From: an uncultured Candidatus Saccharibacteria bacterium
GTDB lineage: Bacteria; Patescibacteriota; Minisyncoccia; Phycocordibacterales; UBA918
Direction: 5' to 3'
NCBI GenBank assembly: GCA_964608605.1
Contig: CAZSOS010000002.1
Coordinates: 36,601-100,600 of the forward strand
DNA length: 64,000 nt
Positions 24,681 through 29,150 of this stretch are shown here, in pieces. Positions within the stretch are counted from its first letter, which is position 1; every line of letters starts with the position of its first letter. The notes below the pieces were generated by a model that saw only the letters and a list, made by a program, of their open reading frames with translations, had not been told where the DNA came from and ran no database searches. Both the position numbers and the translations under genes were made by a program.

Positions 24681-25171
24681 ACCTAGAGTAGGTGATATTT
24701 TTATCTTCCTACTCAAAACCAGTTCCCCGCTGGTTTATTGTTCGCAGTCTAATTAAGACCGCTTCAGAATATCCAAGCTTGTCCCGTACCAAGACGAATG
24801 TCTTTGGTACGGGATATTTCGCACATCTTCTTACCAGGTTCACACTTCACCCAAAATCGTACAGCGATATCCAGCATTCCTTGCAGGAAATACGTCCGAT
24901 TAGTACTTCTCGGCTCAACGTATTACTACGCTTACACCTAAAGCCTATCAACCTAATCATCTCTTAGGGGACTTCATGATACCTAATCTCAGAGTTGGCT
25001 TCCCGCTTAGATGCTTTCAGCGGTTATCCATTCCCGACATAGCTACTGGGCAGTGCCGCTGGCGCGACAGCCCACAGACCAGAGGTCAGTTCATCCCGGT
25101 CCTCTCGTACTAGGGACAAATCTCTTCAAGTATCGACGCCTGCAGTAGATAGGAGACCAACCTGTCTCACG

Positions 25172-25530
25172 CAATAGTAGCTGATTAGCTTTTAGCACTT
25201 AGCTATTAGCCATTCAACGCCATCATTACTGACGGGATCGGACTGTAACTTAGCCGGTTCTCGGCTTCCGATATTCAGTCTCTACAAGTGCACGAGTAAA
25301 CTTTTTTGCCAGTTTTACTCTGCTTCTCTCGGTATTGCCCGCAACATTACTTGTTAGGGTTTTACCGATTTTAATCGGATCATATCACTGATATTCCTAT
25401 CAGTGACCGCCGTGTAGGTTGGTTCTTTTCTTTGTTCATAAACGAAAAGTAAAAACAATTCTTCGAAGGGGTTTAGACTGCTGAATTTCCCTTAGCCAAG
25501 AGCTAAGTGCTAATAACTAAGAGCTATTCA
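25172..25530 (-). mobile_element. 359-nt ORF-less insertion in 23S between GGGTTTAGACCGT and CGTGAGACAGG (E. coli ~2593, the I-CreI/I-CeuI homing site); group I intron candidate with TTAGC-repeat inverted ends
   Basis: Exon sequence is continuous across the insertion. The insertion ends are TTAGC-rich inverted repeats at 25178-25210 and 25497-25527. Confidence 0.55.
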
Positions 25531-26187
25531 ACGGTCTAAACCCAGCTCGCGTATCTTTTTAATTGGCGAACAGCCAAACCCTTGGGACCTGCTCCAGCCC
25601 CAGGATAAGATGAGCCGACATCGAGGTGCCGAACCGTGCCGTCGCTTTGGACGCTTGGGCACGACTAGCCTGTTATCCCCAGGGTAACTTTTATCGGGTA
25701 ATCTCCGGCGGCATCTAACGCCAACCATCGGTTCACTATGCTCCGCTTTCGCGTCTGTTCGGCATCTACGCCTTACAGTCAAGCCAACTTTTGCCATTGC
25801 ACTATCGGCACGGTTTCCATTCGCGCCTAGTTGACCTTGAGACCCCTCCGTTACATTTTGGGAGGGTAGCGCCCCACTAAAACTGCCTGCCACTCACTGT
25901 CCCCGCCGCGTTTGACGCGACGGGTTAGAAACTGCCCAATTTAAGATAGGTATTTCACTGACGACTCCACGGTACCCGAAAGCCCGCTTCAAAGTCTCCC
26001 TACTATGCTACGCATAAATCAAACAGCCCCAATAAGAAGCTACAGTAAAGCTCCTGGGGTCTCTTCGTCTAACTGCAGGTAGGCTGCATCTTCACAGCCA
26101 TTGTATTTTCACCGAGCAGGTCCTTGAGACAGTTTCCCAGTCGTTACGCCATTCGTGCACGTCGGAACTTACCCGACAAGGAATTGC

Positions 26188-26420
26188 GCTCTATAATTCC
26201 TTCTTTAATGTAGATACCCGCGTATCTACGTACACAATAGGACTCTATCTTCACCCTCTTATATACTAGTCAGACTAGTATAAAGGTGGGGTGTGCAACA
26301 TTTGGTCTCTTGTTGGTTGCAATTGGAAATACTAATGATTACTCACTAGTAAGGTAACTATGGCTCGGGCTGTTTAACTCTACAATCGTTCTAATCCGTA
26401 GAGCACACTTCCGAAGAAAC
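26188..26420 (-). mobile_element. ~233-nt ORF-less insertion in 23S between GGTAGAGCGC and (G)CAATTCCTTGTCGGG (E. coli ~1917 intron site); carries an internal REP-like palindrome
   Basis: Flanking exon sequence aligns to AACTATAACGGTCCTAAGGTAGCG|AAATTCCTTGTCGGG. Palindrome TATACTAGTCAGACTAGTATA lies at 26262-26282. A 7-nt direct repeat AGAGCGC sits at the junctions. Confidence 0.5.
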
Positions 26421-26647
26421 GCGCTCTACCTTAGAACGATTATAGTTATCGCTGACATTGACGGGGGCTTACACAGTCCAGCACCCAGCACCACTCTCAC
26501 AAACTTTGTTTGTGAAGATGGTGCTGGGCACCGCCCGTGCTTAACCTTCCCGCATTGGTCAGGCGTCACCCTCTATACATGGACTTACGTCTTCGCAGAG
26601 AGCTGTGTTTTTGTTAAACAGTCGCCAGGAAATCTTTCGCTGCGGCC

Positions 26648-26836
26648 GAGCGCATCACGCTACGCGCGATGACTAAATTCAAAATTGAAAAGTCAAAATG
26701 CAAAATTACAATGCAAAGTTCAAAATTTCGCTACGAACTCTATGAGTACGTGACGTAATTTTTACTTTTTATTTGTACTTTTGATTTTTGAGATTTTCCT
26801 TTTCAATTTAGCATCACATGCAATGTGATGCGCTCG
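26648..26836 (-). repeat. AT-rich IVS-like expansion in the 23S helix-63 region (copy A of a duplicated AT-rich element)
   Basis: Inserted between the complementary arms GAGCGCATCAC and GTGATGCGCTC. Contains a 47-nt segment (26689-26735) identical to 27405-27451. Confidence 0.6.
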
Positions 26837-27374
26837 GCAGGCCTTATCCCGAAGTTACGGCCGCTTTTTTGCCGAGTTCCTTAAGGACCCCTCACTCGTT
26901 CGCCTTGGTCTTCTCGACCCTACCACCTGTGTCGGTTTGCGGTACGGAACCACTATGCTTAACCCAAACGAAGTTTTTCTCGGAAGCGTGCTCCTTACAT
27001 TTCCTTGGCCGTAGCCGCAGATTCAGACTCTACTCGGATGATATCGCGCGGATTTGCCTACGCGACGTCCTCATAGCTCCAGCACCAATCCAATAAGATG
27101 CTGTAAGTACAACGCTCCGTCCCTCCATAGGAACATAGCAGTGTGCAGGAATATTAACCTGCTCTCCATCGCCTCCGGCGTTCGCCATCGGCTTAGGACC
27201 GACTAACCCTTCGCTGATCACCATCGCGAAGGAAACCTCGGTATTTCGGCGGACGGGGTTCTCACCCGTCTTGCGGTTACTTGTGCCGGCATTCTCACTT
27301 CGCATCGCTCCAGGTAGGGTCTCCCCCACCATTCATCGCAGATACGAACGCTCTCCTACCACTCAACGCACCTC

Positions 27375-27525
27375 ACAAAAGTTCGTTGCTAAAATAAAAA
27401 TGTAAAAGTCAAAATGCAAAATTACAATGCAAAGTTCAAAATTTCGCTACGTGCTATCCTGCGCGTTGCGTGATTTTGATTTTTGAGATTTCAATTTTCA
27501 ATTTAGCATCTCACCTCTGTGAGAT
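27375..27525 (-). repeat. AT-rich IVS-like expansion in 23S helix 45 (copy B)
   Basis: Inserted in the helix-45 stem CAGCGCATCTCAC/GTGAGGTGCGTTG, the site of the classical enterobacterial and Coxiella IVS. Shares the 47-nt repeat and the GATTTTTGAGATTT motif with copy A. Confidence 0.6.
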
Positions 27526-28554
27526 GCGCTGAATCCGCAGTTTCGGTAATATGCTTGAGCCCCGATCATCTTCGGCGCAAGGACTCTCGACCAGTGAGCT
27601 GTTACGCTTTCTTTAAAGGATGGCTGCTTCTAAGCCAACCTCCTGGCTGTTAGAGAATCCTCACCTCCTCCAGATGCACTGAGCATATATTTAGGGACCT
27701 TAACTGGCGATCTGGGCTGTTCCCCTTTTGACCAATGGAGCTTCTCCCCCATAGTCTAACTGCCGAGCTATAATCTCTGGTATTCGGAGTTTGATAGGAA
27801 CAACGAGCTTTCGCCCTGTTTGTTCCTTCCAGTGCTCTACCCCCAGAGGGACCACTCGACGCCAACCCAAAAGCTGTTTCGGAGAGAACCAGCTATTACG
27901 GAAATCGATTAGCTTTTCACTCCTTACCACAAGTCATCCGATGGTTTTGTACGGCCAACCGGTTCGGGCCTCCACGAGGTTTTACCCTCGCTTCACCCTG
28001 CTCATGGCAAGCTCTTCCCGCTTCGGGTCGTACCCCAACTCCATATTCGCGCTATTCACGCTCGCTTTCACTGCGCCTCCGCGGGTTTTCCGCTTAGACA
28101 AGGAATTAAGGTACACTCGCCGGCTCATTCTTCAATAGGCACGCCGCAACCCCGAAAGGCCGCGACTCCTTGTAAGTGTATGGTTTCAGATCTATTTCAC
28201 TCCCCTCTCCGGGGTTCTTTTCACCTTTCCCTCACGGTACTAGTTCACTATCGGTCTTAAAAGATATTTAGCCTTACCAGTTAGTGCTGGCAGATTCATC
28301 CGAGCTATTCATGTCTCGAACTACTCAGGAACAAGATCAACGGAGTCATATACATTTCAAATACGGGACTATTACCCACTGGGGTCGAGCTTCCCAACTC
28401 GTTCTTCTATATATATGTTTTGTAACTCCGCGCAACTAAATGCGGACCTTGCCCTACAACCCCGTAAATATTGCTATCAACGGTTTGGGCTATTCCCGTT
28501 TCGCTCGCCGCTACTAAGGGAATCGCGAGAACCTTCTTCCTGGTTTCAATGGCC

Positions 28555-28878
28555 CCAGCACCACTTTTTGGTTTCAATGGATTTGAGACGACTCACATCT
28601 TTTCAATAATTCTTGTTTGCCGCGACCATGTTGTTTAAGTCGCTGCTCACGCTTGTCCGCATCGTCTTTAGAACGGTATGCTTCTGCGTATATCAAGATC
28701 CATTTCCCTGATGTTCTGTGCGTAGACTTATTGCGTGAGCTATTATGCTCGCTAAGTCGTCGCCTCAAATCATTGGTTCTTCCAATGTAGATATCTCTAG
28801 TATCACTGTGTTGTATCACATAGACACTGTACATAATCCACATTGTATCAAAACCAAAAAGTGGTGCTGGGTAGTTTT
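28555..28878 (-). mobile_element. IVS-like element in 23S domain I (E. coli ~210) bounded by 21-bp perfect inverted repeats CCCAGCACCACTTTTTGGTTT; encodes a GIY-YIG protein
   Basis: Inverted repeats at 28555-28575 and 28858-28878. The flanking rRNA aligns to GAAAAGAAA...GATTCCC..AGTAGCGGCGAGCGAA. Confidence 0.65.
28574..28843 (-). CDS. GIY-YIG nuclease superfamily protein (89 aa) encoded inside the 23S rRNA gene
   Basis: YSVYVIQHSDTRDIYIGRTNDLRRRLSEHN carries the GIY...YIG motifs with conserved Arg and Glu. Confidence 0.6.
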   Translation of the reverse strand: MWIMYSVYVIQHSDTRDIYIGRTNDLRRRLSEHNSSRNKSTHRTSGKWILIYAEAYRSKDDADKREQRLKQHGRGKQELLKRCESSQIH

Positions 28879-29150
28879 AACCAGAAAGAAAGTTCCGTAT
28901 ATTGCTTTCTTTTCCTCTCGGTACTGAGATGTTTCACTTCCCGAGGTGTGCTCTCGCATAACGCGAGTTTCCGACGTAATCGGAAGGGTTTCCCCATTCG
29001 GAGATCTCCGGATCGAAGGTTGATTGTCACCTCCCCGAAGCTTATCGCAGACATTCTACGTCCTTCATCGCTCTTTTAAGCCAAGGCATCCACCATACAC
29101 CCTTACATTCCTGCAAGGAATGCTGTACACCGCTGTACGATTCTGATCAT

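Follow-up and report, generated by a model that had tools for sequence, protein, structure and literature searches.

The 23S rRNA gene of the window and its insertions

The window, i.e., the whole stretch of 64,000 nucleotides that was analyzed, contains on its minus strand a 23S rRNA gene that is linked to the 5S but not to the 16S gene (Table 1). The Rfam model LSU_rRNA_bacteria matched the gene with 2293 bits at model positions 1-2925 of 2925. The gene has an intact sarcin-ricin loop sequence and is bracketed by a 38-nt precursor processing stem. Insertions were mapped by global alignment to Escherichia coli rrlH and by comparison with a relative, L032, whose 23S core is ~92% identical. This revealed 6 inserts, namely 2 group I-type introns (L2593 and L1931) and 4 helix-tip hairpins (in the hairpin at E. 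coli ~227, Ec227, and at helices 45, 63, and 68, termed H45, H63, and H68). Together they make up ~1.31 kb, the same as the excess of the gene over the normal length, and leave a core of ~2.93 kb.

An earlier, sequence-only reading of this DNA, which gave no strand, had proposed a real and intact gene with a core of normal length, interrupted at recognized hotspots by both core introns and helix-tip intervening sequences, all of which agrees with our results: the covariance model found a full-length gene and no pseudogene with a disrupted core. The domain I insert with 21-bp inverted repeats and a GIY-YIG ORF as well as the H45 and H63 elements were recovered in the alignment, and the 359-bp insert at position 2593 proved exact. 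For an insert of ~233 bp placed at position 1917, the size holds (237 nt), but the position has to be corrected to U1931. Furthermore, 5 independent insertions had been counted. The hairpin at the H68 tip had been overlooked, and the inserts are not independent: one repeat is present in copies at both H45 and H63, and the termini of the H68 hairpin are also those of the GIY-YIG cassette.

Table 1. Features of the 23S rRNA locus, with positions in the window.
Feature	Position	Strand	Description	Basis
23S rRNA gene	24879-29116	-	4238 nt including six insertions	Rfam RF02541; alignment to E. coli rrlH
Processing stem, 5' arm	29108-29145	-	38-nt stem; 89% complementary to 24852-24889	inverted repeat
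Processing stem, 3' arm	24852-24889	-	partner of 29108-29145	inverted repeat
Leader hairpin	29388-29413	-	26 nt, CCCAGCACCUAUGUAUAGGUGCUGGG, in the 23S leader; termini as in the cassette	
Ec227 insertion	28529-28901	-	373 nt, after E. coli 227 in a small domain I hairpin	rrlH alignment
IR-GIY-YIG-IR cassette	28554-28871	-	318 nt; termini CCCAGCACCACTTTTTGGTTT / AAACCAAAAAGTGGTGCTGGG	perfect 21-nt inverted repeat (28554-28574 / 28851-28871)
GIY-YIG ORF	28574-28843	-	89 aa from first ATG	Pfam PF01541, E=9.9e-19
H45 element	27365-27530	-	AT-rich IVS-type hairpin at helix 45 tip; 166 nt replacing ~20 nt	
H63 element	26648-26835	-	AT-rich hairpin, second copy, at helix 63 tip; 188 nt replacing ~14 nt	
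H68 hairpin	26484-26528	-	45 nt replacing helix 68 tip (net +36); termini CCCAGCACCA...TGGTGCTGGG	
L1931 intron	26191-26427	-	237 nt, after E. coli U1931; group I-derived mini-intron without P4-P6	alignments
L1931 internal guide	26352-26358	-	GUUACCU; U1931 opposite A	complementary to ligated junction AGGU/AGC (P1 and P10)
REP palindrome copy	26262-26282	-	TATACTAGTCTGACTAGTATA, at L1931 intron P8 tip	
L2593 intron	25172-25530	-	359 nt, after E. coli U2593; canonical ORF-less group I	rrlH alignment; Rfam
L2593 internal guide	25405-25414	-	CACGGCGGUC	read directly from sequence

A canonical intron and a mini-intron interrupt the conserved core

In the L2593 intron, located at the I-CreI site, the 5' splice site has a U·G wobble, the last nucleotide is G, the guide pairs with both exons, and P3-P9, including P4-P6, are present. 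Within the guide, GCGGUC pairs with the exon sequence GACCGU (U2593·G wobble) and CACG with CGUG of the 3' exon (P10). Homologues of the intron are present in L006, L032, and L013; the guide is kept in L032 and L013 and differs by 1 or 2 substitutions in L006 and L131, and 4 precise intron-less alleles were identified. The Rfam model Intron_gpI aligned P4-P6 of L2593 with a score of 31.1 bits (E=1e-5), which, like the 24.1 bits of L1931, lies below the gathering score of 50. Since both introns interrupt the universally conserved core, they would have to be removed with exon ligation.

The L1931 intron, flanked by CUAAGGU upstream and AGCGCAAUUCC downstream, retains the guide (P1 and P10), a GNRA-capped P2, P3, P7, P8, J8/7, P9.0, and the terminal G. 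In place of P4-P6 it has 8 nt, the splice-site U is paired with A instead of G, and an intron segment, AAGGAA, pairs with the 3' exon. The palindrome at the tip of its P8 is a copy of the genome's REP element, a 21-nt palindrome that is dispersed in intergenic DNA and of which inverted pairs flank a Y1-transposase gene (32117-32806); in the intron's closest relatives, L032 and L036, P8 is short and the palindrome absent.

The L1931 family was sampled among the matches listed using a 3'-junction pattern, so the ratio of mini to full members is biased, and 79 distinct sequences from these matches were aligned. The mini members number more than 70 distinct metagenomic sequences, and two further mini-introns came to light without use of this pattern. 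Among the matches listed, the guide-exon pairing is present in 98.7% of the alignment cells of these 79 sequences, P3 is 97% paired with covariation at 6 of 6 pairs, and pairing reaches 98% in the exon-intron helix, where 4 pairs covary, while RNAalifold independently recovered P2, P3, P8, and P9.0 with compensatory changes. The nucleotide opposite U1931 was A in all 72 members whose P3 and P7 are 7-10 nt apart and G in all 11 members with full P4-P6, 5 of which contain single-domain LAGLIDADG-type ORFs (all among the matches listed). Members containing P4-P6 scored 40.6-65.9 bits with Intron_gpI, and the mini-introns of the family went undetected by this model. The mini-introns form a family that lacks P4-P6 and keeps P1/P10, P2, P3, P7, P8, and P9.0 with covariation, and which seems to be undescribed in the literature searched. 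This widespread family has thus lost a domain that is regarded as present in every group I intron.

Self-splicing of the L1931 intron is doubtful, because P4-P6 and the U·G wobble, features considered universal among group I ribozymes or necessary for them, are absent. We infer that it would still be excised by group I chemistry, either alone or with a protein supplying the missing scaffold. It is quite possible, if not the reading that we favor, that the intron would instead be a catalytically dead relic, removed by host proteins or another nuclease-plus-ligase route. This would fit the loss of P4-P6, which the literature presents as a universally conserved domain that scaffolds the core (PMC6257700), and the U-A pair at the splice site; moreover, degenerate group I introns of lichen fungi, which average 233 nt, do not self-splice in vitro and are removed in vivo, for which a nuclease-plus-ligase or host-protein route was proposed (PMC8527467). 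However, more than 70 diverged sequences preserve J8/7, P7, P3, P8, P9.0, and the guide and show compensatory changes in them, which points to selection on the catalytic core itself, and the terminal G and P10 are kept. In addition, a Tetrahymena ribozyme without P4-P6, engineered by Ikawa et al. in 2000, is reportedly still active. A protein-assisted ribozyme is intermediate between a dead relic and excision by group I chemistry, the explanation that we prefer.

A GIY-YIG cassette and AT-rich palindromes at helix tips

The Ec227 insert, which folds into a single long hairpin (z=-11.5), consists of an extension helix shared within the lineage and the GIY-YIG cassette at its tip; in L032, the same extension helix is capped by merely ~25 nt. 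For the ORF, 25 homologues were found, and since these are 85-86 aa long, the second ATG (28834) is suggested as its start. The closest PDB entries are the UPF0213 proteins 1ZG2 and 1YWL. GIY-YIG relatives were confined to CPR MAGs, with 5 of 6 lying inside or beside rRNA genes, and the ORF is bracketed by inverted repeats in 13 of 13 loci (span 307-327 nt). Homology to cassettes in other helices begins and ends exactly at the 21-nt termini, which are identical despite a protein identity of 77-80% and a different host helix (Ec227 vs. H63). Decayed forms exist as well, and ORF-less or truncated derivatives with the same termini are present in L024 and L035. Because its termini match those of the cassette, the H68 hairpin is probably such an ORF-less derivative as well. 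The cassette of ~318 nt is a discrete unit that appears to move between rRNA helix tips, leaving ORF-less derivatives behind, and that seems to be undescribed in the literature searched.

The H45 and H63 elements, which share 63 nt at 94% identity, are predicted to form long hairpins (-70.7 kcal/mol, z=-8.4, for the single hairpin at H45; -85.2 kcal/mol, z=-10.0, at H63), and a related AT-rich element lies beside a 23S exon on a metagenomic contig. As L032 lacks all 4 helix-tip elements, they are, by this comparison, recent. We propose that they were grafted onto variable helix tips and derive from small palindromic mobile elements, comprising the GIY-YIG cassette, its probable miniature at H68, and 2 copies of an AT-rich palindrome of ~150-190 nt. 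As RNA, they would form near-perfect duplexes that RNase III may excise without religation, resulting in a fragmented but functional 23S rRNA.

Alternatively, the hairpins may be tolerated as surface expansion segments, unexcised in a mature and unfragmented 23S rRNA. While we regard this as unlikely for all 4 hairpins, they do lie at the ends of variable helices on the periphery, where there is steric room for additional RNA, and the outer Ec227 helix is conserved in relatives without the cassette and thus behaves like an expansion segment. On the other hand, perfect duplexes of at least 20 bp are ideal RNase III substrates, translation of an ORF locked in the ribosome is hard to envisage, RNase III-excised intervening sequences classically occur at H45 (PMC11270868), and CPR metatranscriptomes show insertions removed from transcripts (PMC11270868). 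Excision by RNase III remains our preferred reading for the helix-tip hairpins.

A probably functional 23S gene with an insertion load typical of CPR

The host belongs to the Paceibacterota, within the ultra-small bacteria of the candidate phyla radiation (CPR), as judged from the 16S rRNA, which is 91.0% identical to that of the Paceibacterota MAG ABC1.92 and 75.5% identical to that of E. coli. The lengths of the 5S (110 nt) and 16S (1460 nt) are both as described for CPR, CPR contigs show synteny with the rRNA region, and all organism-labelled relatives of the GIY-YIG ORF and of both introns are CPR, with most relatives being unlabelled metagenomic contigs. Insertion-interrupted 23S genes are a documented norm in CPR/Patescibacteria (PMC11270868, PMC9297842). 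Because insertions occur in 82% of CPR 23S genes and add up to 1.3 kb on average (1.33 kb; PMC11270868), the overall insertion load is ordinary for this lineage.

We consider it very likely that the locus represents a functional 23S gene of a Paceibacterota (CPR/Patescibacteria) bacterium with a radiation-typical insertion load and 2 mechanistic classes of inserts. A pseudogene or an assembly chimera is highly improbable: an assembler might in theory be misled by repeats within the gene, but the covariance-model match spans the full length with an intact core, the processing stem flanks the gene, the inserts all occupy helix tips or canonical sites of introns, and several independent assemblies show the same architecture and synteny. 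The sequence-only reading had likened the gene to that of Coxiella, but an ordinary non-CPR bacterium with L1917 and L2593 introns plus unrelated intervening sequences is scarcely credible and already refuted by the intron position (1931) and by the host, with its 16S identity, rRNA lengths, and exclusively CPR labelled relatives, so that the likeness in element classes (core introns and an H45 intervening sequence) is superficial.

Comparison with known systems

The closest counterparts, from the same host clade, are the rRNA insertions of CPR (Tsurumaki et al. 2022, PMC9297842; Tsurumaki et al. 2024, PMC11270868; Brown et al. 2015, as cited therein), which match ours in total length (1.31 kb here vs. 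the reported mean of 1.33 kb) and in hotspots, including 1931 and 2593. Both there and here, group I introns are ORF-less, GIY-YIG ORFs are confined to non-intron insertions at scattered sites, and short unclassified inserts occupy classical intervening sequence sites. The surveys left the short inserts unclassified, and the text of them that was searched makes no mention of inverted repeats around GIY-YIG ORFs or of introns without P4-P6, both of which are resolved here.

L1931 and L2593 correspond to the organellar I-CpaI and I-CreI sites, and L1931 introns are also present in Thermotoga and Simkania. Known group I introns at these positions share with ours the sites, the U before the 5' splice site, the terminal G, a guide pairing with both exons, and the P3/P7/P8 core. 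In contrast to larger L1931 members with single-domain LAGLIDADG-type ORFs, both introns of the window lack an endonuclease gene, and the L1931 intron furthermore lacks P4-P6 and the U·G wobble. Like the degenerate introns of lichen fungi (PMC8527467), it is a short (~200-240 nt) group I derivative missing elements for robust self-splicing; the lichen introns are nevertheless removed in vivo. Unlike these and the engineered Tetrahymena ribozyme, it has a bacterial host, it cleanly lacks the whole P5-P4-P6 domain with all other elements conserved with covariation, and the loss of the domain goes together with a change from G to A in the guide. That ribozyme is said to show that catalysis without P4-P6 is possible.

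The helix-tip hairpins resemble the RNase III-excised 23S intervening sequences of Salmonella, Leptospira, Campylobacter, and Coxiella in that extended hairpins replace helix tips, H45 is a classic site, occurrence is sporadic among close relatives, and some contain an ORF. They differ in that 1 element is found in 2 different helices (H45 and H63), Ec~227, H63, and H68 are not classic sites, and the product of the ORF has a GIY-YIG domain and is not the four-helix protein 23S_rRNA_IVP. The ~86-aa protein instead resembles stand-alone UPF0213/YhbQ-type proteins in its size, GIY-YIG catalytic domain (PF01541), and best PDB matches (1ZG2 and 1YWL), and, unlike I-TevI-type homing endonucleases, it has no DNA-binding domain, host intron, or conserved target sequence. 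We know of no repeat-bounded cassette arrangement within rRNA genes for chromosomal UPF0213 genes, whereas the gene of the window appears to travel in precisely such a cassette. Finally, the dispersed 21-nt palindrome and its inverted pairs around a Y1-transposase gene correspond to REP elements and their RAYT (IS200-like Y1) transposases, with the difference that 1 copy here lies within a ribozyme helix, P8 of the L1931 intron, inside a 23S gene.

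The 23S rRNA gene contains six inserts

The bacterial LSU rRNA model of Rfam (RF02541) identified a complete 23S rRNA gene, aligned over model positions 1-2925 of 2925 with 2293 bits, which is above the gathering score. When compared with E. coli rrlH by blastn and affine global alignment, this gene proved to be continuous apart from six sites, four of which are located at helix tips (the Ec227 hairpin, H45, H63, and H68), while the other two correspond to the introns L1931 and L2593 (numbering according to E. coli). This map confirms the inserts in domain I, in helix 45, in the helix 63 region, and at 2593 that had been recognized in the sequence-only reading. 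However, the latter had placed a further insert at 1917, whereas the alignment puts it at 1931, with CUAAGGU and AGCGCAAUUCC as its flanks, and it had counted five insertions, overlooking the one at the H68 tip.

Features of the rRNA genes and associated repeats, with lengths of the inserts derived from the alignment to E. coli rrlH.
Feature	Position	Strand	E. coli position	Length
16S rRNA gene	7925-9384			1460 nt
23S rRNA gene	24879-29116	minus		4238 nt
Insert at Ec227	28529-28901	minus	after 227	+373 nt
H45 insert		minus	1168-1232	net +148 nt
H63 insert		minus	1711-1747	net +149 nt
H68-tip insert	26484-26528	minus	1854-1885	net +36 nt
L1931 insert	26191-26427	minus	after U1931	+237 nt
L2593 insert	25172-25530	minus	after U2593	+359 nt
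Complementary end arms of L2593	25495-25520 / 25185-25210			26 nt
Hairpin motif family	9426-9455 (16S leader), 31446-31475 (rplJ leader), 25495-25526, 25185-25210
Two tRNA-like genes	24505-24578, 24603-24680	minus
Inverted repeat around the tRNA-like genes	24454-24483 / 24760-24789			30 nt
5S rRNA gene	24314-24423			110 nt
AT-rich palindromic element	30787-30906 (rplJ-rplL spacer), 43171-43290			~110 nt
IS200-like Y1 transposase gene	32117-32806	minus
REP palindrome repeats	32075-32117, 33013-33055, 32817-32840, 19462-19485; one further copy in the L1931 intron

The 23S rRNA gene is enclosed by a 38-nt inverted repeat resembling a processing stem and is followed downstream by the 5S rRNA gene. 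The 16S rRNA gene lies approximately 15.5 kb away from this 23S-5S unit, with protein-coding genes in between, and a tRNA-Ile(GAT) is found about 1.9 kb downstream of it. Two tRNA-like genes between 23S and 5S, designated Ser(ACT) and Pro(GGG) by ARAGORN, have unusual anticodon loops, score only 38 and 46 bits in Rfam, and are themselves surrounded by an inverted repeat; they may represent genuine tRNAs or processing signals. tRNA matches in the same position were found in two relatives (L013 and L131), and the 157-nt match in the former (L013:3308-3464) is probably an intron-containing tRNA gene, a type of gene that has recently been described for Patescibacteria.

The L1931 insert shows conserved pairings of a group I intron

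In a permissive Rfam scan, the L1931 insert matched Intron_gpI with 24.1 bits (E=1.2e-3), which is below the gathering score of 50, and 81 model positions corresponding to P4-P6 were replaced by 1 nt in this alignment. At the gathering threshold, neither of the two introns was reported by the Rfam scan; the permissive scan alone revealed them. A homologous insert of 186 nt is present at 1931 in a Saccharibacteria MAG (L007). Sampling of metagenomes by the 3'-junction pattern yielded at least 120 loci, a procedure by which the ratio of mini-introns (L1931-type introns without P4-P6) to full introns is biased. A recognizable 5' exon was found in 110 of the at least 120 loci listed, with an intron of 184-288 nt in 104 cases and of 450-785 nt in six. 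From the matches listed, 79 sequences with less than 92% mutual identity were aligned; the resulting covariation counts take in related sequences.

Among these 79 sequences, P3 is 97% paired with compensatory changes in all six pairs; the alignment also supports P7 and the base of P8, with GAAGAUAGAGUCC conserved as well. Furthermore, exon positions 1918-1927 form a 10-bp helix with the intron, which is 98% paired and includes four covarying pairs (AACGGUCC/GGACUGUU versus AAUCGUUC/GAACGAUU). The near-invariant sequence G(C/U)UACCU pairs with AGGU and AGC across their ligated junction in 98.7% of alignment cells; on sequence evidence, this is the guide-sequence signature of group I introns, comprising P1 plus P10. 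The insert also has the terminal G of group I introns. P2, P3, P8, and P9.0 were found independently by RNAalifold using 32 trimmed sequences: P2 carries a GNRA cap and covaries in 8 of 8 pairs, while in P9.0 the nucleotides following P7 pair with those preceding the terminal G in covarying combinations (CUUCU/AGAAG, CUACU/AGUAG, and CUAUU/AAUAG). An assignment of U1931 to a simple long 5' hairpin as P1 was dropped given the invariant GCUACCU guide and its G/A polymorphism. Although the long helix formed by exon and intron is genuine and covaries, it crosses P1 and is therefore probably an earlier pairing or an alternative one.

R1, a covariance model derived from the mini-introns, recovered the window copy at 98 bits and revealed no further mini-intron in the window. 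It also identified P4-P6-less copies with GUUACCU in two loci (L128 and L132) that lie outside the 3'-junction pattern and had been retrieved via their GIY-YIG protein. In two metagenomic 23S loci (L059 and L065), three or four weak R1 matches per locus were obtained, an indication that these 23S genes harbour several introns of the group I type. The tip of P8 bears a 21-nt REP palindrome of the genome in the window, and this palindrome is missing from L032 and L036 (220 nt), the closest sequences among the matches listed.

Loss of P4-P6 is accompanied by a U-A pair at the splice site

Two hallmarks of group I introns are missing from the L1931 insert of the window, namely the P5-P4-P6 domain and the U·G wobble. 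P3 and P7 are separated by 8 nt in the window and by 7-10 nt in 72 sequences of the family among the matches listed, and a canonical P4-P5-P6 is located exactly at this position in five small members (59-92 nt) and in all six large members listed; one locus, L069, has a reduced P4/P6. Among the matches listed, the nucleotide opposite U1931 is A in 72 of 72 sequences lacking P4-P6 and G in 11 of 11 family members containing it, and the splice-site pair is U-A in 73 of the 79 L1931 sequences. Within the alignment, U·G is confined to six sequences with a 59-92-nt insert at the P4-P6 position, which are five family members and the atypical L064. The receptor of the U·G wobble, J4/5, lies in P4-P6, so that the loss of U·G in the mini-introns fits the loss of this receptor.

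Members with P4-P6 scored 40.6-65.9 bits on Intron_gpI, two of them above the gathering score, and the other mini-introns went undetected at E<=0.01 in the same search. The matches listed form a graded series, starting with introns of 450-785 nt that contain P4-P6, U·G, and mostly a LAGLIDADG-type ORF (a single-domain protein of this type is encoded by five of the six large members listed), continuing with introns of 234-282 nt that likewise have P4-P6 and U·G, then with one member whose P4/P6 is reduced, and ending with introns of 184-266 nt that lack P4-P6 and show U-A. A search of the window for a P4-P6-like motif encoded in trans gave nothing convincing.

The L2593 intron aligns with the group I model, including P4-P6

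The second intron begins after U2593 and has G as its final nucleotide. As read from the sequence, its internal guide CACGGCGGUC (25405-25414) pairs through GCGGUC with the exon sequence GACCGU, including a U·G wobble, and through CACG with CGUG of the 3' exon, corresponding to P10; this guide is conserved in the homologues of L032 and L013 and nearly so in that of L006. Intron_gpI (RF00028) was aligned over the whole model, including P4-P6, with 31.1 bits (E=1e-5; gathering score, 50) in the permissive scan. The window intron is devoid of an ORF. Inserts at 2593 in relatives measure 449-700 nt, and LAGLIDADG ORFs were called in the 3' part of the corresponding 23S genes.

The complementary arms at the two ends of the intron are restricted to the window and consist of a motif of the GCACUUAGC type, which is also found in the leaders of 16S and rplJ. 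Units of the type GCACTTAGC / GCTAAGTGC form a family of hairpin motifs, and their presence at both ends of L2593 results in a closing stem specific to the window. A candidate for a second intron at 30925-30960, based on a 72% repeat shared with L2593, was rejected as a chance match inside the ribosomal protein L10 gene.

The GIY-YIG ORF belongs to a cassette bounded by inverted repeats

The insert at Ec227 has no ribozyme and contains a GIY-YIG ORF of 89 aa (86 aa when starting from the second ATG, as in homologues), which consists of the bare domain (PF01541, E=9.9e-19). Its relatives with 55-64% identity were found in CPR MAGs only within a species-representative genome collection, and 5 of 6 are located within or adjoining rRNA genes. 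Closer homologues (77-80%) are encoded on contigs that are syntenic with the window, where the ORF is followed by 23S, 5S, and a VWA-domain gene in turn.

In 13 of 13 loci, the ORF lies between near-perfect inverted repeats of 16-21 nt, forming a unit of 307-327 nt (28554-28871 in the window); the inverted repeats travel with the ORF. L128-L132 and L135 carry exactly the repeat of the window, CCCAGCACCACTTTTTGGTTT, and its first ten bases are also found in L133 and L134, while the proteins of cassettes with the identical repeat are only 77-80% identical. Homology ends exactly at the outer repeat ends. In the window and in L128, the cassette is located at the Ec227 hairpin, and in L131 and L132, at H63. 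Remoter cassettes are found in H63 (L006 and L007), at approximately position 179 of 16S (L003 and L005), and in the 23S leader (L004). Units with the cassette termini, CCCAGCACC...GGTGCTGGG, include one with a truncated ORF (L035) and an ORF-less one present in two copies (L024). Within the window, the CCCAGCACC motif is confined to three places (six matches compared to 0.46 expected), namely the cassette, the hairpin at the H68 tip, and a 26-nt one in the leader of 23S, the two hairpins carrying it as termini. These comparisons suggest that the GIY-YIG unit behaves like a small mobile element bounded by terminal inverted repeats. In the CPR survey text searched (PMC11270868), inverted repeats around GIY-YIG ORFs are not mentioned.

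In the mini-intron of L128, P8 bears a hairpin of about 90 nt (L128:5375-5470) with CCCAGCAC...GTGCTGGG at its base, which equals the termini of the cassette; cassette derivatives may invade intron helices as well.

Helix-tip inserts form long hairpins and differ between close relatives

In all helix-tip inserts, an extended double-stranded stem replaces the helix tip, with z-scores of the folds from -8.4 to -11.5; H45 and H63 each form one long hairpin (z=-8.4 and -10.0). A double-stranded stem at a helix tip and a sporadic occurrence are characteristic of IVSs of the RNase III type, and both apply to H45, H63, Ec227, and H68, all four of which are missing from the metagenomic contig L032. 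The inserts of H45, at 27365-27530, and of H63, at 26648-26835, have 63 nt in common at 94% identity plus 40 nt at 90%, and a related AT-rich element is located beside a 23S exon in contig L015.

An AT-rich palindromic element in the rplJ-rplL spacer has a copy 12 kb away (79% identity, matching in both orientations), and both loosely resemble the H45 and H63 elements. Furthermore, dispersed palindromes co-occur with a Y1 transposase gene (PF01797, 29.9 bits; cut-off, 23), as is characteristic of REP/RAYT systems. This IS200-like gene lies between inverted pairs of the palindrome TATAC(C/T)AGTC(A/T)GACTAGTATA.

The 23S core of L032 is about 92% identical to that of the window. Both introns are present in this contig, and the H45, H63, H68, and cassette sites hold just tips of 14-25 nt; the outer extension helix at Ec227 is common to both. 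The L2593 intron is absent exactly between 2593 and 2594 in four other loci (L042, L066, L076, and L081). Insert content among relatives ranges from approximately 0.3 kb to more than 3 kb, and each of the window inserts is polymorphic among them. This distribution indicates that the helix-tip elements are recent acquisitions, while the introns are older and polymorphic.

An insertion-rich CPR gene and its place among known systems

The 16S rRNA of the window is 91.0% identical over 1452 nt to that of a Candidatus Paceibacterota MAG (L005), compared to 75.5% for E. coli. Judging from this 16S identity, the host belongs to the CPR/Patescibacteria, and the rRNA region is syntenic with CPR contigs. 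The 110-nt 5S and 1460-nt 16S rRNAs fit the small rRNAs of CPR (PMC9297842). According to published surveys, 82% of the 23S genes of CPR contain insertions of at least 100 bp, which add up to 1327 bp on average; hotspots include 1917, 1931, 1952, 2593, 2604, and 2657; GIY-YIG ORFs are limited to insertions that are not introns and lie at scattered sites; and classical IVS sites are occupied by short inserts of no assigned class (PMC11270868; PMC9297842). The window has inserts of at least 100 nt at two of these hotspots, 1931 and 2593, which serve as insertion sites in L006, L007, L131, and L132 as well. The likeness to Coxiella proposed from the sequence alone therefore gives way to the known CPR architecture described in these surveys (PMC11270868; PMC9297842). 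As a whole, the gene is one more insertion-rich CPR 23S gene of an already known kind, and it matters mainly as a well-resolved case in which close relatives reveal the recent inserts.

The L1931 and L2593 inserts would be spliced out with exon ligation, since they interrupt universally conserved sequence in what is presumably the sole 23S gene and since all pairings that define the splice sites are kept. The mini-intron would use group I chemistry without P4-P6, possibly assisted by protein. RNase III would excise the helix-tip hairpins as in classical IVSs, and its cutting would free the GIY-YIG message.

Taken together, we consider it a serious possibility, if not quite a probable one, that L1931 represents a natural and widespread bacterial group I-derived family that lacks P4-P6, employs U-A, and is still accurately spliced from an essential 23S rRNA present in single copy, and that the GIY-YIG insert is a transposon-like unit with conserved terminal inverted repeats of 21 nt. 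Splicing of L1931 may then be achieved by a minimal ribozyme or by a protein replacing the lost scaffold, and the cassette would move from one rRNA helix tip to another and give rise to miniature derivatives. A natural group I family without P4-P6 was not described in the literature searched, although an earlier description may exist, and P5-P4-P6 is termed universally conserved in a review (PMC6257700). The mini-introns would serve as a natural experiment for defining the minimal architecture of group I ribozymes, would bear on the loss of RNA scaffolds or their handover to proteins in reduced genomes, and would account for some of the short insertions left unclassified in surveys of CPR rRNA. 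The repeat-bounded cassette, suggestive of a simple mobile element directed at helix tips of rRNA genes, could account for the spread of IVS-type inserts.

Regarding known systems, the GIY-YIG ORF corresponds in size and similarity to the minimal single-domain proteins of the UPF0213/YhbQ type (approximately 90-100 aa), and UPF0213 proteins are its closest matches in the PDB (1ZG2, E=2.8e-5; 1YWL, E=2.9e-4). It shares the GIY-YIG domain with homing endonucleases of the I-TevI type, which usually reside in a self-splicing intron, but has neither their linked DNA-binding domain nor a conserved homing site. The mini-intron is close to the P4-P6-deleted Tetrahymena ribozyme that Ikawa reportedly engineered in 2000; the latter, however, is man-made. 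Among natural introns, it comes closest to the degenerate group I introns of lichens, which do not self-splice (PMC8527467).
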